The notes under the pieces are model-generated. The model did not search any database and was not told the origin of the DNA. It saw nothing but the letters and a program-made list of their open reading frames with translations. Below, one piece after another: positions 6,933 to 56,062 of a stretch of DNA of 64,000 bases. This DNA comes from Eledone cirrhosa (taxonomy: Eukaryota). The stretch is taken from NCBI GenBank assembly GCA_964016885.1, contig OZ024742.1:100068001-100132000 (forward strand). The letters are read 5' to 3'. The stretch's first letter is position 1, and the number at the start of each line of letters is the position of its first letter. The translations under genes were made by a program, and so were the position numbers.

Positions 6933-7258
6933 TTGAGATATAGATATACATATAGATATACATATAGATATACAGATAGATAGACAGATAGATATGTTTC
7001 TTTTATTTGCCACTAGGGCATCAAAAGTGGGGCAAGTACAAAGGGGGGAGTTTACACAAAAAGGCGTCCTCAATAAGGAGGAGGCAATAACAAAATATAA
7101 AAATAAAATAAGATATAACAAAAAATAAAATTTTTAACAAAATCCTCAATAGAGAGGAGGCGCCTTGGGGGGTCGCACACACCCCCGAAAAAAGTGTGCA
7201 ACCCTTCTCCTCAGGAGCACAGAGAAGGGGTGCTCCCTTGGTCTTTCATCTTCCTCAC

Positions 7259-10200
7259 CTATAGTCTGATGTAGAGTGAAGGCCCATTCACACGGGCCAT
7301 TCTCGCCACTTTCACCCATCTTTCATAGAAACGGCTGGGGTGCAGCACCTCTCTCTCCATCCTGATCCTTCTTCCGAAATGATATCGGTAGAAACGGACC
7401 AGTTGTTGACCAGAGAGAAAGGTGCCTGACCTCAGTCCTTTCAGACGCGTCCACCATACAACCTCTTTCGCCATGGCTATTACGCACAGAAACACCGCCT
7501 CTGCTTCATCTTTGAAGGGGGGAGGCGGCTTGATCATTAAGATAGACTCGGTGGTCAACCGGATCGGTCCCACCCTTGACAGCAGTTGTTCGACATAGCC
7601 CCACAGATCGGCTACGCCCGAGCAGTGTACCAATGCGTGTGCAACGGTTTCCTCGTCGCACACGCATCTGGGACAGATCTTTTTGGCGGGGTCCCTACCC
7701 GGGCGTCCGTGTCTGTAGAGCCTTTCTCGAACGGGTAAAGCCCCTCGGTAGCACTGCCAGGCCAGGGACTTCTGGAAGTTGTCCATAGGTCCCGGGCTGA
7801 ATGTCCTACCGAACAGGCTGGCCAGTTCGTCCTCCTCCATGTCTAGGGCTTCTCCGAGGGCGTCGTCGCACCTGCTGCGTACCAGCCCTCTATAGAATGT
7901 TGCGGTGGAGTCTCCACTGATAACCGGATCCGCCTGCCAGAGGGCGGTGAGCGCCTGGGCACAATCAGTGTGCCAGGCGCCCAGTTTTCTCGGTCTTTGC
8001 TTGACCCAGGATTGCAGCTCAGTGAGTGAGACGAGTCTGGGAAAGGTTCGTCTCACAAACGAGGCCCACACCGGTTGTCCGGTGAGGAATACGTAGAGGT
8101 GCCGTAGCCTTAATGCGTGTTTACGCATCATTAGCCACGGCATCCCCAGCCCTCCTTTCGAAGGGTGTTGACAGCAGATGAATCTCCTCACCATAGGAGC
8201 CCGCCTCTTCCAAAGGAATTAGAAGAGCGCGCGCTCCATCTTGGTGAGGGTTTCCCTTGGGCAGGGCACTACGGTCAGGCGGTAGTAGATGACGGACGCT
8301 ATGTAGGTGTTCGCCACCTCCGCCCGACCTTTCAGGGATAGTTTGCAACTGGCCCACTTCTGGGTCAGTGCAAACACCCTGTTCGTAATCTCCGCCCAGT
8401 TTTTCTCCACCTGGAGGTCCGGTCCGAACCAGACCCCGAGCAACTTCACCGGGCCCTCCGTCCAGCGTCCGACGACGCTATCGGAGGGCATCGGTCTGCC
8501 CCTCCACGTGCCGAGTTGCAAACCGATCGACTTGTCCCGGTTCAGCTTAGCCCCTGTGAACTTTTCGTACTCCTCCAGTAAGGTGCCGACCGCCTCGATT
8601 TCGGAGGCCGTCGACACCATTACTGTCACGTCATCGGCGTAGGCCGACACCGCTTTCCGCAATCCCGGTTCCAAAGGGATGCCCTGCAACAACTCCAACT
8701 TCCGCAGTAGTGGCGCGAGAGTCAACACATACAGAAGGGAGGAGAGAGGGCACCCTTGTCGGATGGACCGCGCGATTTTGAACGGCTCCGAGAGGTAGCC
8801 GTTCACCTTGACCCTAGAGCAGATGCGGCTGATGTGCATAGCAGTGATCCAGCCCCTAAAAACGGGTCCGAAGCCTGCCGCCGCTAGCACCGCATCCAGG
8901 TAACCATGGTCGACCCTATCGAACGCCTTAGATTGATCCAAGTTGATCAGAGCCCCACCAAAGCCGGGTTCGTTCCCAACCCTCTCTCTGATGTATCGCA
9001 TGAGGTGGAGGTTGTCATGGATGGACCTGGACGGGATAGCGCATGTCTGCGCATCTCCCACCAGGTTGCCCACGACAAGCGCCAACCTCTTTGCTAGCAC
9101 CTTGGCCAAAATCTGTAACTCTGTATTTAGCAGTGTTATGGGCCTGAAGTTACTTATTTCGTCCCCCTTGTTCTCGTCCTTCCTCACTAGCGTTACTACG
9201 CCCTTGGTCACAGTACAGGGAATTCTTCCGTTCTGTTGCCAGTTGCAGTAGACCGCCTCGATGAGATCGGGGAACAAGTCCGGCATAGCTAGATATAATT
9301 CGTAAGGAAGACCATCGAGACCCGGGGATTTGCGTTTGCCGCATTGGCTCAGCACGTCCTCTATCTCAGCGGCCGAAATCGGCTCCTCGCAGGACTTCGC
9401 CTCCCTGTCCGAGAGGCGCGGCAGGCCGTCGAGGTATGGACCGAAGTCCACGTTCCCAACCGGCTCCCCGCCCCTCCCGAACAGTCGGGCAAAGTGCCTT
9501 TGAAAGGCCTCACACATCTGCTTAGGCTCAAGAATCGCCCGTCTATCCAGGTCTCGCAAAGACCGGATGGTGGATTTAGTTCCACTGTTGGCCTCTGTCA
9601 TGCGGGTCCAGCTAACAGCTTTGGTCCCCTCGTTCCCTAGAGCACGTATTTTACTTCGGACAACGCAGCCTTCGTGCTTCGCGTCGAAAAACTGGCTCAA
9701 AGCCGTTCTCGACGCTAGCACTCTGGCCACGTCGCTGCTTCTAATTGCCTCTTCTACTCTATCTATTAGCTCCCTTTCCTTCCTATTCCTATCCGCAGCT
9801 AGAACCTTACTAAATTCTATCGAGACTACTCTAATCTCTCTCTTTAGAGATACCCACCACCTGCTGTTGACGATCGCTCCAGTCAACCGTTCCTTAACTA
9901 ACGTACTAATCCGATTCCTGTAGGCTCTACTTGCCGGCAAGGACAAGTTGAGCTTCCAGTAACCGGGGCCCTGTCTATGAGTTCTGTCAAGGTTGACCAT
10001 GCAGGTCACTAATTTGTGGTCTGAATAGCCAACCATGCGCATTTTTGGACAACTTAAAAAGTCCTTATCCTTAATTCTAACTAAGAACCTATCTAGGTAC
10101 GACCTAGATGATCCGCTACAATTTGCCCAAGTCCAGGTTGGCGCAGTCGGAAAATCTAGTCGATATCTATCGGCCAGGTCAAATCGACCGATTAACCCTT

Positions 10201-10696: not shown

Positions 10697-10720
10697 GTTG
10701 GTGGTGAAGAGAAAAGACAC

Positions 10721-12512
10721 TTACCTCTCTGCGTCCCGGGTATCGGGCTGCACAATTTCCATTAGGGTGGGGGATGGGTTGTTGGGTGGGGTGGTGGTTT
10801 GTGGAAGTGTGGGGGCATCAGTGTGTTGTGTGGTTGGGGAGCTTGGAGTTGTGTGGGTGTTTGGGGAGGGGGTGGGATAGTTTTTTAGGAGGACGCGGTT
10901 AATGGGCCCGACGCAGGGGGGACCCACGTCCTCTTTAAAATTGTTTTTTAAAGTTTTATAGGTGTCCTGTGGGGCCTTAATCATTTTGAGGTGGGGGAAA
11001 TCCCCTGCCTGGGTGAAGTTAGGCCCTTGTGTTTTTATTAGATTGTTGTTGCACACAATGTTTAACAGTTTTTTGTTTCTTGTATTTATGTATGTGTATG
11101 CATGTTTTTGTTTTTGTGTGGTGTTTTTTGTTTGCTGTTGTGAGCTCTTTTGTGTTGGTGTCAGTGTTATGTTTTGGGGAGGGTTTTTTTTCATTTGTGT
11201 GTCTGAGGTGTGTTTTCTTTTTTTTCTTTTGATTGTGTGGAAGTGCTCCTCCTCGTCTGACGACGAACTAGGGTCATCTTCCGCGTTGGAGGGGAGGGGT
11301 ATATTTTCGGGTTGTGTTTGCGGTACGGGTGTTTTGGAAATTGTTTTTGTTTTTTGAGTGGAGGGGATGGGTTGGACATTGTTTTGTTTTGGTTTGAGCT
11401 GTGGTGGTTGTTTTTGTAGTGGTAGTTGTGGTGATTGTGTTGGTTGTGCAGTTGTTGGTGGTGTAGGCAGGATTGGGGTTTTCTTATTAAGTTGGGGACA
11501 GACAGCCCTCAGGTGACCTCTGGTTCCGCAGAGGTAACACGAGGGCCGTCTACCCTCAACGGTAATGTTGATGAAGGTTAGATCATCCAGTATGACGCGT
11601 TCAGGGATCTGGGCGATCCTTTCGGGCCTCATTTGAACTACAAGTTCGAGGCTCGTTCCACTGAACGCGTCACCCGATGCCTTTCCCATGGACACCAGCA
11701 TGTCATCCTCCAGGTCCAGAAAACCTGTCAAAACCCACCATATGTCCATAATCGGCAGGATGGTGTGGATTTTTATTTTTTGTGTTCTTCTACCCATGTA
11801 CGTAGGGTAGAAGGTGTATGCGGTGGATGTGATTGGTTTGATGGACAGTTTCACTGCTGTGTCCCTGTCCTTCATGAGAATGGATAGACTCCCGTAGAGT
11901 CTATCCTTCTGAATGAAGGTGATGTCCTTCATGACGTCTTTTAAAACCAGCTCTATCTCGCTCTGTGATGGTTGAGCTGGTTTTTTACTTTTGTTCGAGA
12001 TTGTCCTAAACATGACCGTGTTTAGGAGTCTCTGGCTTTTTAGTTCCGGGGGGGGAATGGATTGTGAATGAACCATTTTCCCCGTACACTATATATTTTT
12101 TCGCATCCGCCAGTAGCTCCTTCGCTTTTGTTATATCTACTGGCAGATAGTCGAGGGTTTTCCTTGTCGTCTCGGCGAAGGAGAAATTTTGTTTGTTTGT
12201 GTTGTTGTTGTCGTTGGTGGTGTTGTTGTTATCATTGTTGTTGTTGTCACCGTTATTGGTCTTGTTGTTGTTGTTATTGTTATTGTTATTGGTGTTGTTT
12301 TCGTCCGTCGCATTGTTGTTGTTGTTGCTGTTGCTGCCGATTCTTAGGGTTGTTGCCATGGCAACGTCAAGTTGTCGGTTAACAGGTGGAGAGAATTCTT
12401 CCTCTGGCTGACCTTTCTTCTTGACCTCTGCTACTGTGACAGTGGCAGGGGGAAGCTGTAAGTTCATCTTCCCCTTTCCTCCTTCGAATTTGGGTGAAGA
12501 ATCTTCGGCCAT
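10721..12512 (-). pseudogene. E1 ORF1: nucleic-acid-binding protein with CCHC knuckle, frameshift near 12060
   Basis: CYLCGTRGHLRAVC (CX2CX4HX4C), Asn-rich N-terminus, P/T/Q-rich linker, KRKKRK; ORFs 12006-12512 and 10721-12076. Confidence 0.88.
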
Positions 12513-12758
12513 TTAAAAAAATATTGACTTTTCAACAAGAAAAAACTTTTTTTTTTTTGTTTAACTATTTCGCCTAAAGGCGTAGAATATTTTGAGAGAC
12601 TGACCAGATCAAAGTTTGACCTGGCAGTCCCTCTACAAAATGGTACAAAAATTAAAGTTATCAGACAAGAATTTCTATAGAAATTTAAACAGAACTTACT
12701 CAGCAAGTTATACGCGTGTGTCCATCCCAGAGATAGATAGATAGATAGATAGATAGAC

Positions 12759-12850
<92 letters not shown>

Positions 12851-12851
<1 letters not shown>

Positions 12852-13355
12852 TGTTTCTTTTATTTGCCACCAGGGCATCAAAAGTGGGACAAGTACAATG
12901 GGGGGAGTTTACAAAACAAGGCGTCCTCAATAAGGAGGAGGCAATAACAAAATATAAAAATATAAAAATAAAATAAAATATAACAGAATAAAATTTATAA
13001 CAAAATCCTCAATAGAGAGGAGGGGCCTTGGAGGGTCGCACACACCCCCGAAAAAAAGTGTGTAACCCTTTTCCTCAGGAGCACAGAGAAGGGGTGCTCC
13101 CTTGGTCTTTCATCTTCCTCACCTATAGTCTGATGTAGAGTGAAGGCCCATTCACACGGGCCATTCTCGCCACTTTCACCCATCTTTCATAAAAACGGCT
13201 GAGGTGCAGCACCTCTCTCTCCATCCTGATCCTTCTTCCGAAATGATATCGGAAGAAACGGACCAGTTGTTGGCCAGAGAGAAAGGTGTCTGACCTCAGT
13301 CCTTTCAGACGCGTCCACCATACAACATCTTTCGCCATGGCTATTACGCACAGAA
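12851..13355 (-). mobile_element. 5'-truncated Tx1 copy E2 (ORF2 C-terminus + 3'UTR)
   Basis: LCVIAMAKDVVWWTRLKG...NGPSLYIRL*; 3'UTR as in E1; runs into (TATC)n. Confidence 0.92.
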
Positions 13356-16940: not shown

Positions 16941-20417
<3,477 letters not shown>

Positions 20418-21050: not shown

Positions 21051-21430
21051 ACATACATATATACGTGCAGATATATATATATATACATACATACAATTAT
21101 AGATATATATATAGAGAGAGAAAGGGTGCGAATAAGAAAGATAGATAGATATAGATATAAGGATACATGTGCGTTTACATATCTATATATCCATACATAT
21201 ATCTATCTATCTATCTATCTATCTATCTTGATAGAGTAAGACACGCTTCACATCGGCTCCGCTATTCCATCGGGATTTACCCTTACTATTGTAAGTACCG
21301 GATAAATTTTTCAGTGCAACACATTTGGAACACTAACCCCTGTTATTTAGGGAAACATTTTTGCATTTACCCCCTTTTTAGGGGGTAAAATAAATATCTA
21401 TTTTTGCCGAAAAATTTCTTTCTTGGCAGC

Positions 21431-23269
21431 ATGGCGGAAAAGATGGCAGACATGTCTGCCATAAGCTCTGCCACGCCCCCCAAGTCTGAAGAACAAAAAA
21501 TAATTACAACAAAATTAGACAATGAAACAAACAAAGAAAATGAAAAAACAAATGTTAAGGAAAATGAGCAAACGGAAAACAAACAAACAGAAAATAATAC
21601 AAATAACAACAGGGCAACTTTCGCCCAGAAAACAAAACAATCCATTACATACACACCAATTGACCTAACTGCCGCCAGAGAAAAACTGGCCGAAGCAAAG
21701 AAACACATTGTTTTGGGGGAGAACGGAATGTTTTCCATTAACTCCCCCCCAGAATTCAAGAAAGAAAGAACAGAGAACACAGTTCTCTTCAGAACTATAC
21801 TGAACCAGACAAGAAAGCCAGCACAGCCCAGCCAAATGGAAATAGAGTTAGTCCTAAAAGACTATATGAAGAATATTCTCTTCATACGAAAGGACCGACT
21901 CTATGGCAGCATTTCGGTCCTAACAAGAGACAAGGAAACGGCGGAGAAGCTTTCCCTAAGCCCACTCTCATCGACAACATACAGCTTCTATCCCTCCTAC
22001 ATGGGTAGAAGAACACAGAGAGTAAAAGTAAAAACAATGCTGCCCACAATGGACTTCTGGTGGGCTATTGCTGGCTTCATAGACATGGGCGAAGACACAA
22101 TCCTGTCAATGGGGAAGGCAACTGGAGATGCGTTCCTGGCAATGGGCCTCGACATACTAGTCCAAATGAGGCCCGAAAGAATAGCACAAATCCCGGATCG
22201 CATCTGGCTGGATGACCTTACCCCAATAGACATAATTGTAGAGGGGAGAAGACCAGCATGCTATTTATGCATGGAAAGGGGACACGTTAAGGCTAACTGC
22301 CCGAAACGTATCCCCCAAAAGGACTATTGCCCACACCCACCACAAACAGTACACCAACACCACCCACCTCCAAAAATACACTAATACCACACACAGCAAA
22401 CAAAATACAGACACCACCAACCACAAACACAACACAAACATCACCACCACCAGCACCAAACACAAGCACGACACAAAAATCACCACCACCAACCACAACA
22501 CAAACATCACCACCACCATCACCAACCACAAGCACGACGCAAACATTACCACCACCACCACAAAACCCATTCCAAACAAATAATAAAAAAAACAGTAACA
22601 AATCTACCCCTCCCGCAAAAAAAAAACAACCACACAATACGTCCCTCCCACCTAGCGCTGAAGAGTTTCCCCCAACTTCTGAAGAAGAAGGAGGAGAAGC
22701 CTTCAGACAAGTTAAAAGAAAAAAAAGAAAACACACACCCAGCACACCACAAATAACCCACACACAAACACCAACTCCAATCAAAAACACCCCACCCTCA
22801 ACAAACAAAAATAAATCTGCGCCTCCCCTCTCCGAAACATTGACAGCATAACAAAAAAAGACGTTGCAATACACATATATAAATAAAGAAAACAAAAAAC
22901 TGGTTAAATTAATAAACAATAACCCTATGGTGCAGACCGAAGGGCCAAACTTTATCTCAACAGAGAAACTTCACCCATTTAAAAATGATAAAGGTCCCTC
23001 TGGACCTTTATCGTTCCTTAAAAGAACAATTTAGACGGGACGTGAGCCCCCCCCCCCCCTGTTTAAAACCGTTGAATCGCGTCCTCTTGAAAGATTTCCC
23101 CATAACCGCCCCTCTCCCTGACACAACTCCAAATACCCCAACCCTACCACACACGTGTACCCCCACACCACCACAAAACATCCCTCCACCCAACACACCT
23201 GATGCCATGGAAATTACGCAACCCGGAGAGGTAGGTGCTTTTCTTTCTTCACTTTCAACACCAAAATAG
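21431..23269 (+). pseudogene. E3 ORF1, disrupted by frameshifts and a stop
   Basis: fragments 21404-22384, 22327-22851 and 22985-23269 are collinear with the intact E6 ORF1; CYLCMERGHVKANC. Confidence 0.9.
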
Positions 23270-26200
23270 ATCAATTGAGAGTTGGCTGTTTGAACGCGCG
23301 TGGCCTGGGCTCAGCTTGGAAGCAAGCAAAGCTTCTAAGTGACCTCAGGTCACAAAGTATAGATGTGATGGTTGTTTGCGAGAGTCGGATCAGCAGCGTG
23401 AGACAGCTGGCGCCCGCCTTCGATGACTTTGAGATGCACGCATCTCTCTGTCAACCCGGAGGCGGGGGGGGGGGAGTTGCCGTACTGCTGGATAAACGTC
23501 TGACTCTCGACGTACAGATTGTTCACTCGGACCCGGGTGGTCGATTACTGGTGCTGGACGTCGGAGGCGGTGAAGGCGGGGCTTTCAGACTGGTCGGTCT
23601 TTATGCTCCCTTCGGGGCGGAAAGAGCCGACTTCTTCCAGCGTCTGGAGACTTTTCTAGGAACGTCGCGTTCCCTGCTTTTAGTAGGGGACTGGAATGGA
23701 ATCCTAGATGCGCGTTGGGACTATGCAGGGGCATGTCCCGATAGAGGGGGGTGTAGCAGCCTCAAGGGGTTACTCGATCGATTCGACCTGGTCGATAGAT
23801 TTCGACTAGATTGTCCAAATGCGCCAACCTGGACCTGGGCAAACCGCAGTGGACAATCTAGATCGTACCTAGATAGGTTTTTGGTTAGGAGTAAGGATAG
23901 GGACGTATTTAGTTGTCCAGAACTGATCATGGTTGGCTATTCAGATCACAAATTAGTGACCTGCGTGGTCAACCTTGATAGAACGCATAGACAGGGTCCC
24001 GGTTACTGGAAGATGAACTTGTCCTTGCCGACAAAGAAAGATTACAGAAACCGGATTAGTAGCTTAGTTAAGATGCGGTTGACGGGAGCGATCGTCAACA
24101 GTAGGTGGTGGGTATCTCTAAAGAGAGAGATTAGAGTAAGTTCGATAGGTTACAGTAAGGAACTAGCGGCGAATAGAAATAGGAAGGAAAGGGAGTTAAC
24201 AGATAAACTAGAAGAGGCGATTAGGAGCGGAGACATAGCCAGAGTGTTAGCGGCGAGAACGGCGTTGAGCCAGTTCTTTGACGCGAAGCACGAAGGCTGC
24301 GTTGTCCGAAGTAAAATACGTGCTTTAGGAAACGAGGGGACCAAAGCTGTTAGCTGGGCCCGCGTGACAGAAGCCAAGAGTGGGATTAAATCCACCATTC
24401 GGTCTTTGCGAGACCAGGATGGACGGGTGATCCTTGAACCTGAGCGAATGTGCGAGGCCTTTCAAAGGCACTTTGCTCGACTGTTCGGAGGTGGCGGGGG
24501 GCCGGACGGGGATGTGGATTTCGGTCCATAACTCGACGGTCTACCGCGTCTTTCGAGCGGCGAAGCGGAGTGCTGCGAAAGGCCAATCACAGCCACTGAA
24601 ATCGGGGAAGCGCTCAGCCAATGCAGCAGACGCAAATCCCCGGGTCTCGATGGTCTACCATACGAACTATATTTAGCTATGCCGGTCTTGTTCTCCGAAC
24701 TCCTCGAGGCTGTCTATTGCAACTGGCAACAGAACGGGAGAATTCCCTGTTCTGTGACCAAGGGCGTGGTCACGCTAGTGAGGAAGGACGAGAGCAAGGG
24801 GGACGACTTAAGTACCTTTAGGCCCATAACTCTGCTGAATGCAGAGTTACAGATTTTGGCCAAGGTGTTGGCGAAGAGGTTGGCGCTTGTGGTGGGTGGT
24901 TTGGTGGGAGACGCGCAGACATGCGCTATCCCGTCCAGGTCCATTCACGACAACCTCCACCTCATGCGATACATCATAGAGAGGGTTGGCTACGAACCCG
25001 GCTTTGGTGGGGCCCTGATCAACTTGGATCAATGTAAGGCGTTCGATAGGGTCGACCATGGTTACCTGGATGCGGTGCTAGCGGCGGCGGGCTTCGGACC
25101 CGTTTTCAGGGGCTGGATTTCTGCCATGCACAGTGGCAACATCTACTCTAGGATTAAAGTAAACGGCTACCTCTCGGAGCCGTTTCAAATCACCCGGTCC
25201 ATCAGACAGGGGTGCCCCCTCTCCTCCCTTCTGTACGTATTGACCCTCGAGCCACTGCTGCGGAAGTTGGAGTTGCTGCGGGGCATACCCCTGGAACCAG
25301 GATTGCACAAAGTGGTCTCGGCCTATGCCGACGACGTAACAGTAATGGTGGCGGACGCCTCGGAAATCGGGGTGATCGCCACCCTACTGGAGGAATACGA
25401 AAGGCTGACGGGGTCTAGGCTGAACCAGGATAAGTCAGTCGGTTTGCAACTCGGAACGTGGAGGGGCAAACCAATGCCGTTAGACGGTGTCGTCGGGCGG
25501 TGGACGGAGGGCCCGGTGAAGCTGCTCGGGGTCTGGTTCGGACCGGACCTCCAGGTGGAGAAGAATTGGGGCGAGGTGACGAACAGGGTGTTTGCGCTGA
25601 CCCAGAAGTGGGCCAAGTGCAAACTATCACTGAAAGGTCGGGCGGAGGTGACGAGCGCTTACATAGCGTCCGTCATCTACTACCGCCTGACCGTCGTGCC
25701 TTGCCCTAAGGAACAGCTCACCATCATGGAACACATGCTCTTCCAGTTCCTCTGGAAAAAGCGGCCTCCCATGGTGAGGAGATCCATCTGCTGCCAGCAC
25801 CCTTCGAAAGGAGGGCTGGGTATGCCGTGGCTGTTGATGCGTAGGCACGCATTGAGGCTACGGCATCTACAGGTATTCCTCAACGGTCAGCCGGTGTGGG
25901 CCCCGTTTGTGAGGCGAGCCTTCCCACAGCTCGTCTCGCTCACCGAACTGCAATCCTGGGTGAAGCAAAGACCGAGAAAACTGGGCAACTGGCACACCGA
26001 GTGTGCCCAGGCGCTCACGGCTATCTGGCAAGCGGACCCGACTATCAGTGGAGAATCCACCTCGACATTCTATAGAGGGTTGGTGGCTAGCAAGGGCGAC
26101 GACACCCTTGGAGAGTCGCTAGGCATGGAGGAGGACGAACTGGCCAGCCTGTTCGGTAGAACTTTCGGCCCGGGACCCATGGACAACTTCCAGAGGTCCC

Positions 26201-26706
26201 TAGCCTGGCAGTGTTACCGAGGGGCTCTGCCCGTTCTAGAAAAGCTCTACAGACACGGGCGCCCGGGCAGGGATCCCGCGAAAAAGATCTGCCCCAGATG
26301 CGTACGCGACGAGGAAACCGTTGCGCATGCACTGGTACACTGCCCGGGCGTTGCCGATCTGTGGGGCTACGTCGAACGACTGCTGTCGCGTGTGGCGCCG
26401 ATTCGATTAACCGCCGAGTCTGTGGTGAACATCAAGCCGCCTCCTCCCTTCAGAAATGAAGCAGAGGCGGTCTTTCTGTGCGTAATAGCCATGATGAAAG
26501 AGGTTGTGTGGTGGACGCGCCTGAAAGGTCTGAGGTCGGGTGACTTTCTCTCCGGCCATCACCTGGTTTACTTCTTCCGATACCACTTCGGAAGAAGGAT
26601 CAGGATGGAGAGAGAAGTGCTTGGCCCCAGACAGTTTTATGAAAGGTGGGTGAAAGAAGCGAGAATGGCCCGTGTAAATGGGCCTTCTCTCTACATTGTT
26701 CTGTAG
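23266..26706 (+). pseudogene. E3 ORF2 (EN-RT-ZnF), one in-frame stop at 24529-24531
   Basis: ORFs 23275-24531 and 24679-26706 share a frame; GDWN, SDH, QGCPLS, YADD. Confidence 0.92.
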
Positions 26707-26951
26707 GTGAAGAAGTGAAGAGGAAAGGGGGAGCGCCTCCTCTCTGGGCTTCCCCCGCGAAAAGAGTTGCACACTTTTCGGCGGTATGTGCAATCCCCAA
26801 CACGCCCCCTCCCTTTTGAGGACTTTTTATTGTTATATTATTATTGTTATTCCTTTTTTCTTTACTCGATTTATGTAAACTCCCCCACTGTGTAAATGTC
26901 CCCTTCTTTTGTGCCCTCGTGGCAAATAAATAGAAATTTATCTATCTATCT

Positions 26952-29900
26952 TTTACGATGGACACATGTGCTGAGCTCGCTCGGTAAGTTTTTGTTTAAA
27001 TTCATACGGAAATTGTAAACTGTAAACTTTCATTTTTGTACCATTTTGTAGAGGGACTGCCAGGTCAAATTTTGATCTGGTCGGTCTCTAAAAATATTCT
27101 GCGCCTTTGGGCGAAATAGTATTGTGAACATTTTATCTTTCGAAAAACTTCGAAAAACCCTATTTTGAGAAAAATGGCTGAAGCATCTTCACCATCAATC
27201 AAAGAAGGAAAGGGGCAGTCATACTCACAGCTTCCCCCTGCCACTGTCACAGCAGCAGATGCCAAAGGCAGAGGTCAGAGAGAGGAAGAATTGTCTTCAC
27301 CTGTTGACCGACCACTAGATGTAGCCACAACTACACAAGAATTTGAAAACACCAACAACAACAACGACAACAACAGCAACAATAAAGACAACAAAAACAA
27401 CAACAACACAAACGTCACAAGTATCCACACACCAAACGAGAAAGACAACAACAGCAACAAAGATGAAAACAACTCAAACGACGAGAAACAAAACAATACT
27501 AAAATCCAAAGGGAAAACAAAATATCTTTTGCACAAACGGCTAAATTATCAGTCGCGTATGTGCTTGAAGATATTTCAAAAGCAAAAGAAATGCTGGTAA
27601 AAGCCAAGAAATATGTATCTTTTGGCGAAAACGGTTCGTTTTCTATACATTCACCTCCAGAACTAAAAAAACAGACGGAATTACGAACTGTCGTATTCCG
27701 AACAATTTTAAATAAAACAAAAAAACCAGCGCAACCATCTCAAGCCGAAATCCAGTTAGTCTTGAAAGACGCGATGAGAGACATCACTTTTATATAAAAG
27801 GATAAACTCTATGGGTGTTTATCCATATTGATGAAAGACGAATTGGCGGCGAAAAAATACTCTGTGTCGCCAATTCGGTCCACACACTACACCTTCTTCC
27901 TCACCTACATAGGTAAAAAAACCCAGAGGATATGGATAACCACCATCACCCCAAACATAAACTACTGGTGGTTACTAACCGGCTTCCTCAATTTAGACGA
28001 GGACAACCTCATTTCAATAGGGAAGGCATCCGGCGACGCGTTCAGTGGAACGAGCATCGAAGTTCTGACCCAAATAAGGCCAGAACGCATCGCCCAAATC
28101 CCTGAGCGCGTCATGCTGGATGACCGTACCCACCTCAACATTATTGTGGAGGGTAGGCGTCCCTCCTGTTACCTCTGTAGCAATAGAGGTCACCTGAGGG
28201 CTGCCTGTCCCCAGCTCACACAGAAAAAAACACTGCTACCAACACCAACACCGCCCCAACAACAACAACAAAAACAACGACAACAACAACAACAACAAAA
28301 ACCAACAACCCCACCACCACCACCACCACCACAGCAACAACAAACACGTGAAAAAATAACACAGAATACCGTCCCACCCAATCCCTCCCCACCCAAAACA
28401 AATACAAAAACACACACACCGCAAACACTACCAGAAAACATACCCCTCCCACCCAACAAGGAAGACGAACCCCTTTCGTCGCAAGACGAAAAAGATCCCT
28501 TCCAACAAGTAAAAAGAAAGAAGAGGAGACGCACCACAGACACACATGTTAACTTTAACCCCCCCCCCCCCGCCCCCTCCCCCCAAGAGAACACAAACTA
28601 CACACAAACCACCCCTCCCTGTCACACAACACTATCTGCTACACAAAAAAAGACCTTACAATTTACATACATGAACACAGACAACAAAGAATTACGGAAA
28701 ACAATTTCAGCAAACCCTTCGGTCCAAACCGAAGGGCCTAACTTTAAAACTGCTGTGGGACTACCTCATTTAAAAATGATAAAAGTCCCAATGCACTTGT
28801 ACAAAACACTGAAAATAAATTTCACGGAGGACGTGGGCCCCCCCTGCGCCAAACCAATCAACCGCGTCCTCCTAAAAAAATTCACCCCCCCCCCCCCCTC
28901 CCCTCCCCCCCCCCAACCCCACCCCACCCAGACACCCACTCAACCACAAACACCCCAACCCCACAACACACCGATGCCCCTTCACTCCCACAAACCACCA
29001 CCCCACCCAACAACCCATCCCCAACCAGCATGGAAATTGAGCGGCCCGTTTCCCGGGACGCAGAGAGGTAAGTGCCTTTTAAGAGTAGGGTGTCTAAATG
29101 CGCGTGGCCTGGGCTCGTCTTGGAAGCAAGCAATGCTTCTAAATGACCTCAGGTCACAATCTATAAATGTGATGGTTATCTGCGAGGCCCGGATCAGCAG
29201 CATGCGACAGCTAGCCCCCATCTTTGACGACTTTGAGATGCACGCATCTCTCTGTCAGCCCGGAGGTGGGGGTGGGGTTGTCGTTCTGCTGCAAAAACAT
29301 ATGGGCCTTGCAACACAGATAGTACATTTGGACCCAGGGGGTCGACTGGTGGTGCTGGACCTTGGCAGTGGTGAAGGTAGAGCCTTTAGGCTGGTAGCCG
29401 CATATGCCCCTTTTGGGACTGAGCGGCCCGACTTTTTCCAGCGTCTGGAGTCTTTTCTAGGGACGTCCCGTTCCCTGCTTTTAGTGGGGGATTGGAATGG
29501 TATCCTGGATGCACGTTGGGACTATGCAGGGGCATGTCCCGATAGAGAGGGGTGCAACAGCCTCAAGGGGTTACTCGGCCGATTTGACCTGGCCGATAGA
29601 TTTCGACTAGATGTTCCGACGGTGCCAACCTGGTCTTGGTCAAAACGCAGCGGATCATCTAGGTCGTACCTAGATAGATTTTTAGTTAGAAATAAGGACA
29701 GGGACTTTTTAAGTTGTCCAGAAATGCTCATGGTTGGCTATTCAGACCACAAGTTGGTGACCTGCATGGTCAACCTTGACAGAACGCATAGACAGGGCCC
29801 CGGTTACTGGAAGCTCAACTTGTCCTTGCCGGCAAGTAGAGCCTACAGGGATCGGATTAGTACGTTAGTTAAGGAACGGTTGACTGGAGCGATCGTCAAC

Positions 29901-32771
29901 AGCAGGTGGTGGGTATCTCTAAAGAGAGAGATTAGAGTAGTCTCGATAGAATTTAGTAAGGTTCTAGCTGCGGATAGGAATAGGAAGGAAAGGGAGCTAA
30001 TAGATAGAGTAGAAGAGGCAATTAGAAGCGGCGACGTGGCCAGAGTCCTAGCGTCGAGAACGGCTTTGAGCCAGTTTTTCGACGCGAATCACGAAGGCTG
30101 CGTTGTCCGAAGTAAAATACGTGCTCTAGGGAACGAGGGGACCAAAGCTGTTAGCTGGGCCCGCGTGACAGAGGCCAACAGTGGAACTAAATCCACCATC
30201 CGGTCTCTGCGAGACCTGGATGGACGGGCGATTCTTGAGCCTAAGCAGATGTGTGAGGCCTTTCAAAGGCACTTTGCCCGACTGTTCGGGAGGGGCGGGG
30301 AGCCGGTTGGGAACGTGGACTTCGGTCCGTACCTCGACGGCCTGCCGCGCCTCTCGGACAAGGAGGCGAAGTCCTGCGAGGAGCCGATTTCGGCCGCTGA
30401 AATAGAGGACGTGCTGAGCCAATGCGGCAAACGCAAATCCCCGGGTCTCGATGGTCTTCCTTACGAATTATATCTAGCTATGCCGGACTTATTCCCCGAT
30501 CTCCTGGAGGCGGTCTACTGCAACTGGCAACAGAACGGGAGAATTCCCTGTACTGTGACCAAGGGCGTAGTCACGATAGTGAGGAAGGACGAGAACAAGG
30601 GGGGCGAAATAAGTAACTTCAGGCCCATAACTCTGCTAAATACAGAGTTACAGATTTTGGCCAAGGTGCTAGCAAAGAGGTTGGCGCTTGTCGTGGGCAA
30701 CCTGGTGGAAGATGCGCAGACATGCGCTATCCCGTCCAGGTCCATCCATGACAACCTCCACCTCATGCGATACATCATAGAGAGGGTTGGGAACGAACCC
30801 GGCTTTGGTGGGGTTCTGATCAACTTGGATCAATCTAAGGCGTTCGATAGGGTCGACCATGGTTACCTGGATGTGGTGCTAGCGGCGGCAGGCTTCGGAC
30901 CCGTTTTCAGGGGCTGGATCACTGCTATGCACAGCAGCCGCATCTGCTCTAGGGTCAAGGTGAACGGCTACCTCTCGGAGCCGTTCAAAATCGCGCGGTC
31001 CATCCGACAAGGGTGCCCTCTCTCCTCCCTTCTGTATGTGTTGACTCTCGAGCCACTACTGCGGAAGTTGGAGTTGTTGCAGGGCATCCCTTTGGAACCG
31101 GGATTGCGGAAAGCGGTGTCGGCCTACGCCGATGACGTGACAGCAATGGTGTCGACGGCCTCCGAAATCGAGGCGGTCGGCACCTTACTGGAGGAGTACG
31201 AAAGGTTCACAGGGGCTAAGCTGAACCGGGACAAGTCGATCGGTTTGCAACTCGACACGTGGAGGGGCAGACCGATGCCGTCCGATGGCGTCGTCGGACG
31301 CTGGACGGAGGGCCCGGTGAAGTTGCTCGGGGTCTGGTTCGGACCGGACCTCCAGGTGGAGAAAAACTGGGCGGAGGTTACAAACAGGGTGTTTGCACTG
31401 ACCCAGAAGTGGGCCAGTTGCAAACTATCCCTGAAAGGTCGGGCGGAGGTGGCGAACACCTACATAGCGTCCGTCATCTACTATCGCCTGACCGTAGTGC
31501 CCTGCCCAAGGGAAACCCTCACCAAGATGGAGCGCGCACTCTTCCAATTCCTTTGGAAGAGGCGGGCTCCTATGGTGAGGAGATCTATCTGCTGTCAACA
31601 CCCTTCGAAAGGAGGGCTGGGGATGCCGTGGCTAATGATGCGTAAACACGCATTAAGGCTACGGCACCTCCAGGTATTCCTCACCGGTCAACCGGTATGG
31701 GCCTCGTTTGTGAGATGAACCTTTCCCAGACTCGTCTCACTCACCGAGCTGCAATCCTGGGTCAAGCAAAGACCGAGAAAACTGGGCGCCTGGCACACTG
31801 AGTGTGCCCAGGCGCTCACCGCCCTCTGGCAGGCGGATCCGGTTATCAGTGGAGACTCCACCGCAACATTCTATAGAGGGCTGGTACGCAGCAGGTGCGA
31901 CGACGCCCTCGGAGAAGCCCTAGACATGGAGGAGGACGAACTGGCCAGCCTGTTCGGTAGGACATTCAGCCCGGGACCTATGGACAACTTCCAGAAGTCC
32001 CTGGCCTGGCAGTGCTACCGAGGGGCTTTACCCGTTCGAGAAAGGCTCTACAGACACGGGCGCCCGGGTAGGGACCCCGCCAAAAATATCTGTCCCAGAT
32101 GCGTGTGCGACGAGGAAACCGTTGCACACGCATTGGTACACTGCTCGGGCGTAGCCTATCTGTGGGGCTATGTCGAACAACTGCTGTCAAGGGTGGGACC
32201 GATCCGGTTGACCACCGAGTCTATTGTAATGATCAAGCCGCCTCCCCCCTTCAAAGATGAAGCAGAGGCGGTGTTTCTGTGCGTAATAGCCATGGCGAAA
32301 GAGGTTGTATGGTGGACGCGTCTGAAAGGACTGAGGTCAGGCACCTTTCTCTCTGGCCAACAACTGGTCCGTTTCTTCCGATATCATTTCGGAAGAAGGA
32401 TCAGGATGGAGAGAGAGGTGCTCCACCCCAGTCGTTTTTATGAAAGGTGGGTGAAAGTGGCGAGAATAGCCTGTGTGAATGGGCCTTCTCTTTACATAAG
32501 CCTGTAGGTGGAAAAGAGGAAGGAACGAGGGAGAACCCCCTCTCTGTGCTCCTGAGGAAAAGGGTTGCACACTTTTTTCGGGGGTGTGTGCGACCCCCCA
32601 AGGCGCCTCCTCTCTATTGAGGATTTTGTTATAAATTTTATTTTTTGTTATATTTTATTTTATTTTTATATTTTGTTATTGCCTCCTCCTTATTGGGGAC
32701 GCCTTTTTGTGTAAACTCCCCCCTTTGTACTTGTCCCACTTTTGATGCCCTGGTGGCAAATAAAAGAAACA

Positions 32772-32772: not shown

Positions 32773-32804
<32 letters not shown>

Positions 32805-32819
32805 CTCTATCTCTCTATC

Positions 32820-35800
32820 AGACGTGTGTAACTTCGCGGAGAAGTTTCCGTTAATTTATGTAAGAAAAAAACGTGAGTTTTCAGTTAAATTTTATATTAT
32901 TGTGTAACTTGACCCCCCGTCTGGAACTTCAGGTGGTAGGTCAACACATTTTCGCCCCTACAGGAGCGAAATATCCGTTTGAAATATTTTTTCTCCATCG
33001 AATCTTGGAAAAAATATTGTAAAAGTTTGATTACGTTATGAACGCTGCGTCCAACGATAATGGTGGTGGAGAGGCGGTAAGACTACAGAGCTCGCAGTCA
33101 ACATCGTCTTCTTCACTAGATACTATAGAGATGGAAAGACGAAATGAAAATGCAAAAAGAAATTCATATCCAAACAACACAAATGACACCAAACAGTTCA
33201 ATGACAACAAAAATAACAGCAACACCAATAATTATGATAAAAACGACAATGATAACAACAACAAAGAAAAAATAAAGACAACACCAATAACACCAGCATC
33301 AAAGACAACAACAACACCAAGGAAAATACGAATAATATCAACATCGGTGACAACAAGAATAACAACAAGAATAACAACAATAATGACAACACCACCAACA
33401 CGGATAATTCCACAAAGAAACCAAAATTCTCCTTTGCAGAGACAGTTCAAAAAAAAAGGAGGAACTGATATATCTCGACATAACAAATGCTGAACAACTT
33501 TTAAAGGACGCTAGGAGATATGTCACTTTCAAAAAAAATGGTGCTTTCAGCATCAATTCTCCGGTAGAAATTCGCAAGGAAACTGCTCTCAAAACGATAG
33601 TTTTTAGGACAGTTTGCAATTCTACCCGAAAACCAGTCCAATTGTCACAGAAAGAAATCGAACTGGTTTCAAAAAAAAAATGAATGATATTGCATTCATT
33701 CAAAGAAGCAAACTTTTTGGGAGTATTTCGGTACTCATGAAGGATCAATTGACGGCCCAAAATTACTCTGTGTCGCCAATTGTATCCAACCTGTACACCT
33801 TTTTCCCTACATACATGGGAAAAAGGACACAAAAGATCAAAATCACGAGTGTCACACCAAAGGTGAACATATGGTGGATACTGTGCGGCTTCATCAATTT
33901 TGATGAAGACAGAATACTATCAGTAGGAAAGTCCCCCAGAGATGTATTCAATGGGACTAGCAATGAAGTTCTGGTGCAAATGAGTCCAGAGCAAATAGCT
34001 ATGATCCCACAACGTGTACTCCTGGACGGACTCACCTACATAAACTTTTCGGTTGAGGGTAGGCGGCCTTCATGTTACCATTGCTTTAGCAGGGGTCACC
34101 TGAGGGCTTCCTGTCCTAAATTAATGAATCAAAAAAAGGCTCTTCTGCCGACACCCATCAAAACAACACAACCACCAACACCACCACAACAACAACAACA
34201 CCAACACACAAAAATAACCACAACAAACACAGTCCCACCCAATCCCACTCCACCTAAAACCACTGCAAAATCACATACAGACACAACAGCTCCCCAAGAC
34301 ATACCCCTCCCCAATCACACAGACGATACAACAGATGAGGCTATCTCGCCATCACCCAGTGAAGACGAGGGAGAACCCCATCGCTCGAAAAGAAAGAAAA
34401 GACATCACAAAAGCAAAAAACCAGCAAACACTACCACAAACATACAACCACCAATACAAACAACAAAAACATCACAAACAAAACCCCCACCTCCTGAAAA
34501 CAAAATACCTACAACAAAACGAAAGCACACACAAGAACTACAGACAAAAACAAACACAACACAAGAAAATTACACTTACACTTACATAACCACTGAAAAC
34601 AAAACACTAATGGAAACCATCACGAACGACCCTTCGGTTTTCACCGAAGGGAAAACTTTCGCCCACTCTATTAAAAATAACAAAAAACTGAACCTAAAAC
34701 TGATTAGGGTCCCTATACAAACTTATAGGTCCCTAAAAGAAACATCTGAGAAGGATGTGGGGAATTCCTGCGTGAAACCACTTAACCGCGTCCTTCTCAA
34801 ATGTCTCCCCACCCCAGACACCCCCATCCCACCAGACCCAAACCCCGCCAAACATCTCCGTCCCCACCCCGCCGGAAACCACCACCCATCCAGACAACCC
34901 CTCCAACACCCCCATGGAAATCGTGCGGTCTGGTCCCCAGGAGACGAAGGGTGAGTGATCTCTTTTCCTCTTTTAACTTTTCAGCACCAACATGGCCAAT
35001 ATAAGAGTTGGATGTGTGAACGTACGCGGCCTGGGGATGGCCTGGAAACAGGGCAAACTCTTAAACGACCTCAGGTCGCACAGTATGGATGTGGTAGCCA
35101 TTTGCGAGTCCAGGATCCACAGCGAGCGACAGCTGGCCCCCATCTTCGATGACTTTGAGATCTACGCATCCCTCTGTCAACCGGGGGGTGGGGGCGGAGT
35201 TGCCGTTTTGCTGCGGAACACCTGGGCCTCGTAACATAGACGGTACATCTAGACCCGGAGGGTCAACTGGTGGTCCTAGACGTTGACGATAGTGAAGGTG
35301 GAGCCTTCAGGCTGGTGGCCGCATATGCCCTATCCGGGACACCGCGGCCAGACTTCTTCAAACGTCTAGAGACTTTTCTGGGAACGTCCCGCTCCTTGCT
35401 TTTAGTGGGGGGCTGGAATGGAATCCTAGTTGCACGTTGGGACTATGTGGGAGCATGTCCCGATAAGGGGGGGGGGGGTGTAACAGCCTCAAACAGTTAA
35501 TCGACCGATTTGACCTGGCCGATAGATATCGACTAGATTTTCCGACTGCGCCAGTGTGGACGTGGAGTAATCGTAGCGGAACATCTAGATCGTACCTAGA
35601 TAGGGTTCTAGTTAGAAATAAGGATAGGGACATGTTAAGCTGTCCACAAATGTTCATGGTTGCCTATTCAGATCACAAACTAGTGACCTGCATGGCCAAC
35701 CTTGATAGAACCCATAGACAAGGACCCGGCTACTTGAAGCTGAACTTGTCGTTAACGACAAGCAAAGCCTACAGTAGACGGATTAGCACTTTAGTTAAAC

Positions 35801-38672
35801 AGCACTTGACAGGGACCATTGTCAGCAACAGATGGTGGTACTCTCTCAAGAGGGCAGTTAGATTAGACTCGATAGTTTTTAGTAAAGAATTAGCGTTAGA
35901 TAGAAATAGAACCGAGAAGGAACTGGTAGATAAAGTAGAAGAGGCAATTAGAAGTGGCAACATAGCCAGCGTGCTAGCAACGAGAACGGCCTTGGACCAG
36001 TTCTTCGACGCAAAGCACGAGGGCTGCGTTGTCAGAAGCAAAATACGTGCTCTGGGAAACGAGGGAGCCAAAGCTGTTAGCTGGGCCAGAGTGACAGAGG
36101 CAAAAAATGGCAACAAGTCCACGATTCGGTCTTTGAAGGACCAAAACGGACGCGTGATACGTGAGACGAAGCAGATGTGTGCGGCTTTTCAGCGGCACTT
36201 TGCTCAACTGTTCGGGAGGGGCGGCGCGCCGGGAGAGGCTATGGATTTCGGTCCATACCTCGACGGCCTACCGCGACTCTCGGACAGCGAAGCAAAGTTC
36301 TGCGAAAAGCTGATTTCAGCCGCTGAGATAGGGGACGCGCTGAACCAATGAGGCAAACGCAAATCTCCAGGTCTCGACGGTCTACCCTACGAATTTTACG
36401 TAGCAATGCCGGACTTATTCTCCGGTCTCCTGGAAGCGGTCAACTGCAACTGGCAACAGAACGGGAGAATTCCCAGTTCTGTAACCGGGGGCGTGGTCAC
36501 ACTAATCAGGAAGGACGAGAATAAGGGGGATGACATAGGCACCTTCCGGCCCATAACTCTGCTAAGCACAGAGTTACAGATTTTGGCCAAGGTGTTGGCA
36601 AAGAGGCTGGCGCTTGTCGTCGAGAACCTGGTGGGAGAAGCGCAGACATGCGCAATCCCGACCAAGTACATACACGACAACCTCCACCTCATGCGATACA
36701 TCATAGAGAGGGAAGGGTGTAAACCCCGCTTCGGTGGGGCCCTGATCAACTTGGATCAGTCTAAGGCTTTCGATAGGTTGACCATCGTTACCTGGATGCG
36801 GTGCTCGAGGCGGCAGGCTTCGGACCCGTGTTCAGGGGCTGGATTGCTGCAATGCACAACAGCAACATCTGCTCAAGGGTCAAGGTGAACGGCTACCTCT
36901 CGGAGCCGTTCCATATTACGCGATCCATTCGACAGGGATGCCCTCTCTCCTCCCTTCTGTACGTACTGACTCTCGAGCCACTACTGCGGAAGCTGGAGCT
37001 ATTGCAGGGCATCCCTCTGGAACCGAGACTGCGGAAAGCGACGTCGGCCTACGCCGACGACGTGACAGTAATGGTGTTGGGCGCCTCACAAATCGAGGAA
37101 GTCGGCACCTTACTGAAGGAATACGAAAGTTTCAGAGGAGCGAAGCTGAACCGGGACAAGTCGTCGGTTTGCAACTCGGATCGTGGAGAGGCAAACCGAT
37201 GCCTTCTGATGGCGTCGTCGGACGCTAGACGGAAGGACCGGTAAAGCTGCTCGGGGTCAGGTTTGGTCCGGACCTCCAGGTGGAGAAGAACTGGAACGAA
37301 GTGACGGCCAAGGTGTTTGCACTCACCCAGAAGTGGGCCGAGTGCAAACTATCCTTGAAAGGTCGAGCGGAGGTGGCGAATACTTTTATAGCCTCCGCCA
37401 TCTACTACCGCTTGACCGTCGTGCCTTGTCCAGCCAAAACGCTCGCCAAAATGGAGCGCGCGCTCTTCCGATTCCTTTGGAAGAGGCGGGCTCCTTTGGT
37501 GAGAAGATCCATCTGCTGCCAACACCCTTCTAACGGTGTGCTGGGGATGCCGTGGTTGATGATGCGCAAAAACGCGCTCAGGCTGCGGCATCTTTACGTA
37601 TTCCTCACCGGACAACCGGTGTGGGCCCCGTTCGTGAGGCGAGCCTTCCCACGACTCGTCTCGCTGACCGAGCTGCAGTCCTGGGTCAAGCGAAGACTGA
37701 GGAAAATTGGCGACTGGCACATCGAATGTGCTCAGGCGCTCACAGCCCTCTGGCAGGCGGACCAGGTGATCAGTGGAGACTACACTTCATCATTCTATAG
37801 AGGGTTGGTCCGCAGCAAGTGCGACGACGCGCTCGGTGAAACTCTAGGCGTAGAGGAAGATGAACTGGCCAGTCTGTTCGGTAGGACCTTCCGCCCGGGA
37901 CCGATGGACAACTTCCAAAAGTCCCTGGCCTGGCAGTGCTACCGAGGAGCTCTACCAGTTCGAGACAAGCTCTACAGACATGGGCGCCCGGGCAGGGACC
38001 CTGCAATAAAGATCTGTCCGAGGTGCGTGCGAGACGAAGAAACCGTCGCGCACGCATTCATACAGTGCCCGGGCGTCACTGACCTGTGGGGCTATGTAGA
38101 ACGACTATTGTCGCGGGTGGGACCAATCCGGTTGACCACCGAGTCCATTGTCATGATCAAACCGCCACCCTCCCTCAAAAACGAAAGAGAGGCGGTTTTC
38201 TTTTGTGTGATAGCTATGGCGAAAGAGGTTGTATGGTGGACAAGGTTGAAAGGGCTGAGGTCAGACACCTTTCTCTCCGGCCAACAACTGATTCTTTTTT
38301 TCAAATACCACTTTGGAAGAAGAATCAGGATGGAGAGAGAGGTGCTGTACCCCAGCAAGTTTTATGAAAGGTGGGTGAAAGTGGCGAGAATGGCTCGAGT
38401 GAATGGGCCTTCTCTCTATATCAGCCTGTAGGTTGAGGAAAAGGAGGAGGAGAGGAAAGGAGTACAAACTCTTCGTACTCCTGGAGATGAGGGTTGCACA
38501 TTTTTTCGGGGGTATGTGTTACCCATATAAACTGTCTCCCCCTATTGGGGAAAATCGACTAACTTTTTAAATTGCATTTGTGATAACATTTTACACGTTT
38601 TTTATTGTATGTAAACTTCCCCCTTTGTATTTGTCCCCTTCTTTTGTGCCCCTGTGGCTAATAAAGAAACAT
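32820..38672 (+). mobile_element. Full-length, more degraded Tx1-clade LINE, copy E5
   Basis: ORF1 fragments 33038-34954 (CYHCFSRGHLRASC); ORF2 fragments 34992-38431; (TATC)n flanks. Confidence 0.92.
34992..38431 (+). pseudogene. E5 ORF2 with multiple frameshifts and stops
   Basis: collinear fragments carrying SDH, QGCPLS, YADD and CPRC motifs. Confidence 0.9.
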
Positions 38673-38679
38673 ATCTATC

Positions 38680-55831: not shown

Positions 55832-56062
55832 ATTTCTATTTATTTGCCACGAGGGCACAAAAGAAGGGGACATTTACACAGTGGGGGAGTTTACATAAAT
55901 CGAGTAAAGAAAAAAGGAATAACAATAATAATATAACAATAAAAAGTCCTCAAAGGGGAGGGGGCGTGTTGGGGATTGCACATACCCCCGAAAAGTGTGC
56001 AACTCTTTTCGCGGGGGAAGCCCAGAGAGGAGGCGCTCCCCCTTTCCTCTTCACTTCTTCAC

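Follow-up and report, generated by a model that had tools for sequence, protein, structure and literature searches.

The analyzed window, a 64,000-nucleotide stretch of Eledone cirrhosa DNA (contig OZ024742.1, positions 100,068,001 to 100,132,000), contains five full-length retroelements, E1, E3, E4, E5 and E6, which represent four lineages since E3 and E6 are 98.3% identical, and a 5'-truncated copy, E2 (12800..13355, minus strand), which consists of an ORF2 end at 13123 and a 3'UTR and is 93.6% identical to E1. The elements belong to the L1 group of non-LTR retrotransposons, as follows from the domain set of ORF2 (PF03372, PF00078 and, with a sub-threshold score, PF13966) combined with a separate ORF1, tails of (TATC)n or (ATT)n, the occurrence of 5'-truncated copies and the lack of LTRs in the elements examined. 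Among solved structures, the best match of ORF2 is human L1 ORF2p (E = 1e-47), with R2 at 1e-22. The nearest relatives returned, at 68% and 38–46%, include no named Tx1 reference, and the label Tx1 is that of the initial annotation. A CCHC zinc knuckle in ORF1 is a feature of the Tx1 clade; here, each of the five ORF1s shows a CCHC pattern, but the PF00098 match (E = 0.0085) falls below the cut-off. All five full-length elements are flanked by TATC-type runs, which may be either target or tail sequence, and copies lie in tandem. The lineage that carries the donor-consensus sites described below numbers at least 5,352 copies.

The E3 element (21228..26951, plus strand) lies between (TATC)n runs and encompasses a 5'UTR with a donor-like hexamer (site 1, 21291..21296) 63 nt from its 5' end, ORF1 (21431..23269, start to stop, with a weak, sub-threshold CCHC knuckle match in Pfam), a second donor-like site close to the ORF1 end (site 2, 23231..23236, phase 0) that is followed by a T/C tract, and ORF2 (23266..26706), which encodes an AP endonuclease, a reverse transcriptase and a C-terminal zinc motif. 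The region of the ORF2 stop (26687..26708) is a candidate acceptor that can also be read as a third GTAGGT hexamer; the 3'UTR (26707..26951) contains AATAAA at 26925 and the (TATC)n tail. This copy is damaged by an ORF1 frameshift and an internal stop in ORF2.

The initial annotation proposed that ORF2 of these elements is an intron, with the donor at the end of ORF1 and the acceptor at the ORF2 stop, and the donor half of this proposal holds. Besides E3, donor-like sites are located where it placed them in E1 (10719..10724, minus strand, phase 2, with the ORF1 stop inside the site), E4 (29068..29073, phase 2), E5 (34951..34956, phase 1) and E6 (59534..59539, minus strand, phase 0). In the E4 copy, the spacer after the donor, including most of the T/C tract, is deleted along with the ORF2 AUG. 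The pattern purine-G|GT(AA/AG/GA)GT occurs nine times in the window on both strands, and five of these occurrences are the ORF1 ends, so that it is not a matter of chance. The phases are indeed 2, 0 and 1, and characterize whole subfamilies rather than single copies; for instance, phase 1 of E5 could have been specific to that copy but is common to four sampled copies. Survival of the site in three reading phases shows that, as claimed, protein constraint fails to explain its conservation.

Across a broader sample, 45 of 48 elements carry the ORF1-end hexamer with the preceding G, exclusively as GTAAGT, GTAGGT or GTGAGT, and each of the three misses reflects a one-base change confined to one copy. 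Among 12 lineage representatives, with 69–96% ORF2 identity between lineages, positions -1, +1, +2, +5 and +6 are constant and variation begins from +7 onward. Given that 46 of 184 fourfold-degenerate ORF2 sites are invariant (17/60 for G and 7/32 for T), the chance of four such invariant positions is about 0.005, an estimate for sites chosen after the fact. By a crude score of U1 complementarity, the ORF1-end site is the best of 261–320 GT sites in eight of the 12 lineages and joint best in three, the exception being E5. The exon-side AG is retained in 11 of 12 lineages, unlike at the 5'UTR site. Site 2 is located 25–50 nt before the ORF2 AUG and is preceded, by 24–40 nt, by a conserved AUG in the ORF1 frame. 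Considered together, the sequence comparisons support the view that selection maintains a signal resembling a 5' splice site at the end of ORF1. Among the more distant relatives (37 metagenome loci at 22–40% identity, too distant to date the motif), the 11 that include an ORF2 start all lack the hexamer in the 200 nt preceding it.

The same three hexamer variants recur in the non-coding 5'UTR, 30–75 nt from the 5' end, in 45 of the 46 elements with 5'UTR homology, the single miss being truncated below the site. In the window, this site is found at 12694..12699 in E1 and 61471..61476 in E6 (both minus strand), at 32873..32878 in E5 and at 26984 in E4, where an acceptor-like tract extends to 27051, delimiting a 68-nt intron-like stretch (26984..27051). 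The bases preceding the 5'UTR hexamer vary freely, no downstream AG is common to all types, and in most types no upstream ORF ends there. Splicing from this site to an AG located just ahead of the ORF2 AUG was considered and rejected, such an AG being present only in the E5, L085 and L086 types. An RNA without the intron-like stretch would be copied in cis, yet in an uncounted total of E1/E4-type copies, the nine that do not have the A of the acceptor all retain this stretch. The order of hexamer, U-rich tract and start codon in good context is repeated at sites 1 and 2.

The acceptor half of the proposal fares worse. The six ORF2 ends are TAG|GT where claimed (7259, 13123, 26706, 32507, 38431 and 56063), and in E3 and E6 (56061..56082, minus strand) the context, a pyrimidine stretch followed by the AG, is clean as described; in E1 (7257..7267, minus strand), E4 (32499..32509) and E5 (38423..38433), however, there is another AG 7 nt upstream, and such a competing AG is present in most lineages. 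The pyrimidine stretch (10–13 pyrimidines in 16) is itself ORF2 coding sequence. By a crude generic score, the stop AG ranks first of 267 AGs in E3 and first of about 260 in E3/E6 and its sister lineage L078 only, compared with 6–33 in the other lineages, where the better of the two AGs ranks 3–20 in nine representatives. In lineage L082, ORF2 ends in TAA and the AG is missing, and in the L091 clade the stop is preceded by a purine-rich run. For the two exon-side bases, the neutral expectation of conservation is about 0.13, compatible with shared descent, and in 10 of 12 lineages the ORF2 stop carries a donor-like G-stop-GT context. Thus, of the two sites expected to be conserved across related lineages, the donor is, whereas the acceptor is absent in L082 and ranks first in two lineages only; with conservation that fits descent and no ORF2-less copies found (see below), the role of the ORF2 stop as the partner of the donor is not supported.

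The predicted consequence for the reading frame was borne out: a junction at the ORF2 stop would end ORF1 after 0 codons in E1 and E5 and after three in E3/E6, with E4 as the exception (41 codons). Among 13 lineages, the stop-AG junction ends ORF1 within 0–3 codons in eight, including all three phase-shifted lineages that have the AG; in the four other lineages that lack an early stop by this route, the upstream AG combined with a phase-2 donor ends ORF1 at the stop of ORF2 itself. If either AG is allowed, ORF1 would end within three codons in 12 of the 13 lineages, which leaves some probability for an ORF2-skipping event similar to that of copia. The phase-1 E5 subfamily belongs to a clade with a one-base insertion in the 3'UTR that restores the immediate stop, in a single event.

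HAL1 (half-L1) elements consist of ORF1 only, and the initial annotation anticipated such ORF1-plus-3'UTR copies as a possible product of splicing. None came to light: precisely ORF2-less copies were absent among 379 copies of the E3 type, 1,502 of the E1/E4 type and 308 of the L031 type (95% upper bound 0.14%), and so was any multi-copy ORF1-plus-3'UTR family with a precise junction among these 2,189 copies. The search targeted precise junctions behind the exact exon-end motif, covered both AGs for the E1/E4 and L031 types, and left aside E5, five smaller lineages and junctions beginning with G plus A, C or G. On contig 1, the 60 copies listed up to 36.7 Mb all continue into ORF2 (53 by place and seven as read). 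This absence is weak evidence because an ORF2-less RNA needs ORF2p in trans, so that few copies are expected. In human, the spliced L1 copies dependent on ORF1p supplied in trans number 11 in 6,609 (PMC5860796); at this rate, zero in 2,189 has a probability of 0.026, and the true rate could be lower. A mini-intron fusing ORF1 to ORF2, from the donor to an AG 40–60 nt downstream, was rejected as out of frame in E3; it would be in frame in the phase-2 and phase-1 families, but none of the 14 non-G E1/E4-type copies shows it, the other two types having no non-G copies. Contig sets of unrecorded kind, in which contigs indicate presence only, were counted neither way: in four sets from one study, no joint of the E3 donor to the ORF2 end is among the 15 of 96 joints listed, and in the smallest set, none of the 15 of 25 joints listed for E3–E5 has GT..AG ends, while uncut contigs span the E3 donor (23105–23451) and the ORF2 stop (26338–26947). 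Depth in the smallest set, likewise counted neither way, is higher over ORF1.

Our preferred explanation, which we put at somewhat under an even chance, is that the two conserved hexamers, one 30–75 nt from the 5' end and the other at the ORF1 stop, recruit U1 snRNP to the bicistronic transcript in its uncut form, where it would aid full-length transcription rather than mark an intron. The sites, their conservation and the lack of spliced copies in the genome are observed, and all speak for this reading; we infer U1 binding from the similarity to the donor consensus. By analogy with Evade of Arabidopsis, the bound U1 might suppress premature 3'-end formation or support elongation, and any splicing between the ORF1-end site and the ORF2 stop would amount at most to a minor branch in the cells in which the element is copied. 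According to the account in PMC5580714, the conserved donor of Ty1/copia elements is bound by U1, which prevents the unspliced RNA from being terminated prematurely. However, in Evade the same U1-binding site is also spliced (shGAG), which counts against our reading, as does the early end of ORF1 after a junction in 12 of 13 lineages. Retention of the exon-side AG at the ORF1-end site, as would be expected of a working donor, counts against it as well. Furthermore, in 14 elements AATAAA/ATTAAA occurs 0–2 times in ORF2 compared with 1–8 times in the ORF1 region, which leaves the ORF1-end site with few evident signals downstream to guard against.

Less probable, and on balance rather unlikely, is the original reading, namely, that the whole of ORF2 is an alternative intron of 3.4–3.5 kb, spliced to the stop AG or to the AG 7 nt before it, the spliced ORF1-only mRNA retaining the 3'UTR and raising ORF1p over ORF2p as in Drosophila copia. 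A version of equal probability has the donor phase and the post-junction stop coevolving across 3.5 kb and the spliced RNA barred from retrotransposition. What survives of the original proposal is the selected donor, complete with its exon-side AG, and not the ORF2-stop partner or the ORF2-less copies; the intron would have to be deduced from the donor, from the rank of the stop AG in E3/E6 and L078 (with the better AG at 3–20 in nine others) and from the frame logic, including the compensating insertion in the E5 clade, with the ~3-kb copia intron as precedent (PMC5580714). Against these stand the lack of processed copies, even with both AGs covered in two types, the mobilization of other RNAs in trans that has been inferred for Tx1 elements (PMC4494074), the TAA of L082 and the purines of L091, and acceptor conservation no greater than descent would give. 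Moreover, most of the frame logic goes back to a single inherited state, for which each lineage has two chances, and it would also follow if the ORF2 end is a third donor-like hexamer.

The possibility that the motif reflects translation context plus inheritance, with phase-shifted families having merely inherited the letters, appears improbable. A stop codon between two Gs (G-stop-G) terminates translation efficiently before reinitiation at ORF2, and the three variants are exactly G plus TAA, TAG or TGA plus GT; the ORF1 stop lies inside the motif in eight of 12 representatives, the T at +6 is the first base of the stop in the three phase-1 ones, and the ORF2 stop is in the G-stop-GT context in 10 of 12. 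Termination–reinitiation has been described for SART1 and L1 (PMC5972666). However, because the same hexamer is conserved in the non-coding 5'UTR, mostly with no upstream ORF ending there, stop-codon context is not its whole cause, and in the E3 family the motif persists at a distance of 12 codons from the stop, in two donor-compatible forms only (25 and 5 of 30). Marginally less probable still is that the hexamer acts close to a promoter, as a DNA factor site or a promoter-proximal U1 site, and that its ORF1-end copy marks an internal promoter for a separate ORF2 mRNA. This fits the identical order of elements at the two sites, and human L1 does have ORF2-only RNAs, although there they are produced by splicing (PMC2896524); yet the conserved ORF1-frame AUG before site 2 would act as an upstream ORF and, among the loci inspected for other purposes, no subfamily begins just above site 2. 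An HIV-like arrangement with a poly(A) signal upstream of the donor was dismissed, the hexamers 220–360 nt upstream of the ORF1-end site not being at homologous positions.

L1-group LINEs are usually described as using one unspliced bicistronic RNA, with splicing a dead end. The literature searched, outside subscription journals and Repbase, yielded no account of a LINE mRNA that skips ORF2 and none of U1 sites conserved among LINEs. The closest parallels are Evade and Drosophila copia, as portrayed in PMC5580714, in which the donor is similarly near the end of the structural-protein ORF and better conserved than the acceptor, and the ~3-kb copia intron, with termination in the 3' LTR, resembles the ORF2 span; these, however, are LTR elements with demonstrated spliced RNA, whereas E1–E6 are non-LTR elements known from genomic sequence and have a second site in the 5'UTR. 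Human L1, by the accounts of SpIREs and SpORF2 (PMC5860796, PMC2896524), is likewise an L1-group element with 5'UTR donors and spliced RNAs, but its splicing removes the 5'UTR or ORF1, keeps ORF2 and leaves copies (131 of 6,609); here, no spliced copies were found and the sites are conserved between lineages with as little as 69% identity. That selection maintains donor-consensus sites at fixed positions in these elements suggests that LINEs, similarly to Ty1/copia, can use U1 snRNP; whether this would serve full-length transcription or an ORF1-only message, either bears on the ORF1p:ORF2p ratio.

A separate observation concerns the start of ORF2 in the E3/E6 family, where the AUG found in other families is replaced by an ATA codon in the ORF2 frame that overlaps the ORF1 stop (23266..23269 in E3). 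The arrangement is similar to the termination–reinitiation described for SART1 and L1 (PMC5972666), in which the two ORFs of a bicistronic RNA either overlap at stop and start or are parted by a short spacer, but differs in that the overlapping start is ATA, not AUG. The ORF2 of this family is nonetheless under purifying selection, and would represent a natural case of AUG-independent ORF2 translation.

Selection on donor-consensus sites, one at the ORF1 end and one in the 5'UTR, is the best-supported step in interpreting these LINEs. Within the 3.0 Gb assembly, which contains 5,352 exact matches to a degenerate ORF2-start motif, the window holds five full-length elements (E1, E3, E4, E5 and E6) and one truncated copy, flanked by (TATC)n runs; (ATT)n runs take the place of TATC-type runs in the L082/L091 clade of related copies. 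ORF2 of these putative Tx1 elements matches endonuclease, RT and zinc-binding domains, and human L1 ORF2p is its top relative of solved structure. Every donor- and acceptor-like motif listed by the initial annotation lies where it was placed, but E3 and E6 belong to a single family.

Forty stretches around listed copies were fetched, then 20 more. The hexamer at the ORF1 end (site 2), in the form G|GT(AA/AG/GA)GT, is present in 45 of 48 elements, and the other three show single-base differences. Among 12 lineage representatives, with ORF2 identities of ~69-96%, site 2 is the top U1 match of the element in eight, ties for the top in three and ranks lower in E5, by a crude score of our own. Positions -1, +1, +2, +5 and +6 are constant, and variation starts from +7. 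Of 184 fourfold-degenerate cases in ORF2, 46 show no variation, which puts the neutral expectation for four unchanged positions at ~0.005, the positions having been picked after the fact.

A second copy of the hexamer (site 1), absent from the initial list, lies 30-75 nt from the element 5' end, at 21291, 26984 and 32873 on the plus strand and at 12699 and 61476 on the minus strand. Using only the sequence downstream of the hexamer as bait, we found 5'UTR homology in 46 of the 68 elements examined and the hexamer in 45 of these 46, the sole miss being truncated below it. The eleven bait UTRs are 70-87% similar over their alignable parts, and some cannot be aligned. Site 1 alternates among the same three hexamer variants, within a single family too, and has no stop codon and no downstream AG common to the UTR types; this pattern speaks for selection acting on a signal that resembles a donor. 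In E1/E4-type 5'UTRs, a good acceptor follows 67-68 nt after the hexamer, and none of nine copies lacking the acceptor A is spliced across this intron-like stretch; an RNA so spliced would encode ORF2p in cis. Hairpin-like inverted repeats occur in the 5' and 3' UTRs (27052-27090 and 26724-26820), conserved across families as judged by eye, and one begins directly after the acceptor-like AG of the E4 5'UTR.

U1 would bind both sites. In Evade, the closest worked example, PMC5580714 describes a conserved donor that initiates splicing and at which U1 also blocks early termination of the unspliced RNA. For our elements, a mainly non-splicing role ranks first, at somewhat below even odds, because the 5'UTR site has neither a shared acceptor nor spliced copies; a weak point of this reading is that ORF2 contains few poly(A) hexamers to protect.

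Skipping of ORF2 from the ORF1-end donor to an acceptor AG in the ORF2 stop, as initially proposed, comes second and is rather unlikely. By a crude score, this AG ranks first of ~260 AGs in E3/E6 and L078 and 6-33 elsewhere, and it is absent in L082; most lineages have an additional AG 7 nt upstream, and the better of the pair ranks 3-20. The preceding pyrimidine stretch consists of ORF2 codons, with purines there in the L091 clade, and the neutral expectation that the two bases following the stop are kept is ~0.13 across the ten closer lineages. For the reading frame, 51 of the 68 elements could be scored (15 lack the 3' end and two a donor call) and were grouped into 13 lineages, setting aside five copies altered privately or by chimerism. 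Splicing to the stop AG would terminate ORF1 within 0-3 codons in eight of the 13 lineages, and splicing to the upstream AG would do likewise in four more, L082 having neither AG; this counts for the intron model as suggestive only, because it is largely one inherited state.

Exact exon-end motifs number 379 (E3 type), 1,502 (E1/E4 type) and 308 (L031 type). The signature sought for spliced copies, an exon end continued by GT and non-A or by non-G, occurs 0 and 0, 7 and 14, and 1 and 0 times, respectively; all 22 hits are point variants or small indels whose sequence runs into ORF2. For other continuations, 60 listed sites within the initial 36.7 Mb of contig 1 were compared with the ORF2-motif list: 53 matched by place, and inspection of the other seven showed that they extend into ORF2. 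The genomic copies lacking exactly the donor-to-acceptor interval, to which the initial annotation had looked for confirmation, thus number 0 of 2,189 in these three types (95% bound 0.14%), E5 and smaller lineages being outside the count. PMC5860796 gives 131 spliced copies among 6,609 for human L1, 11 of them of the class requiring ORF1p in trans; at the latter rate, zero in 2,189 has a probability of 0.026, and copying of RNA without ORF2 may be rarer still here. The count rules out a spliced RNA that is both abundant and readily mobilised in these types but not splicing itself. The donor-like signal is real and selected; the claim that ORF2 is an intron is unproven.

Stop-codon context combined with inheritance is improbable as a source of the hexamers. 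The donor is in phase 2 in most lineages, where the motif contains the ORF1 stop, in phase 1 in the E5 subfamily and L082/L091 and in phase 0 in E3. In 10 of the 12 lineages, the ORF2 end can be read as a further GTAGGT, the third in the element. An internal-promoter reading is slightly less probable again. Spliced or U1-guarded RNAs are described for copia elements (PMC5580714) and splicing for human L1 (PMC5860796, PMC2896524); within the limits of the library searched, we found no report of an ORF2-skipping LINE mRNA or of U1 sites conserved across a lineage of LINEs.

In the E3/E6 family, which has at least 379 copies, the ORF2 AUG is missing from all 30 loci read, and an ATA there overlaps the ORF1 stop (23266-23269, plus strand; 59501-59504, minus strand). 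Over 1.4 kb of ORF2, six young copies are separated from two older AUG-less ones by 10 synonymous and 3 non-synonymous fixed differences, vs 3 and 12 for private changes (Fisher p 0.007). This contrast shows purifying selection and makes translation without that AUG likely, with non-AUG reinitiation or a -1 slip as the likely start; reinitiation is described for SART1 and L1 (PMC5972666). Two homopolymers differ in length among E3-family copies, a G run early in ORF2 (~23465-23477) and a C run towards the end of ORF1, and ORF2 is open across the 484 fetched codons in only 6 of the 30; the length changes may reflect either slippage or assembly error. In the E4 copy, the ORF2 AUG is gone together with most of the spacer (29074-29081), and with a homopolymer frameshift this copy reads as a single open frame of 1,306 codons, unlike other E4-type copies.

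Elements of different families lie head to tail at ~5.8 kb spacing, joined by TATC-type runs, in window positions 21180-38760 and in L037-L040, L100-L101 and L107, as if each had inserted into another's tail. Mosaics among L096, L171, L175, L182 and L073 (E1-type 5'UTRs on E5-type ORF2 starts, E4- or E5-type 3' ends behind E1-type ORF1 ends) suggest that recombination between families is frequent. The window also contains a tandem array at 16971-20302 (~499 bp unit, ~6.7 copies, 98-99% identity) and, at 51513-52451 (plus strand) with 48375-50772, an RT-encoding element of a different kind, unaligned with the L1-group copies (PF00078, E 7e-21).
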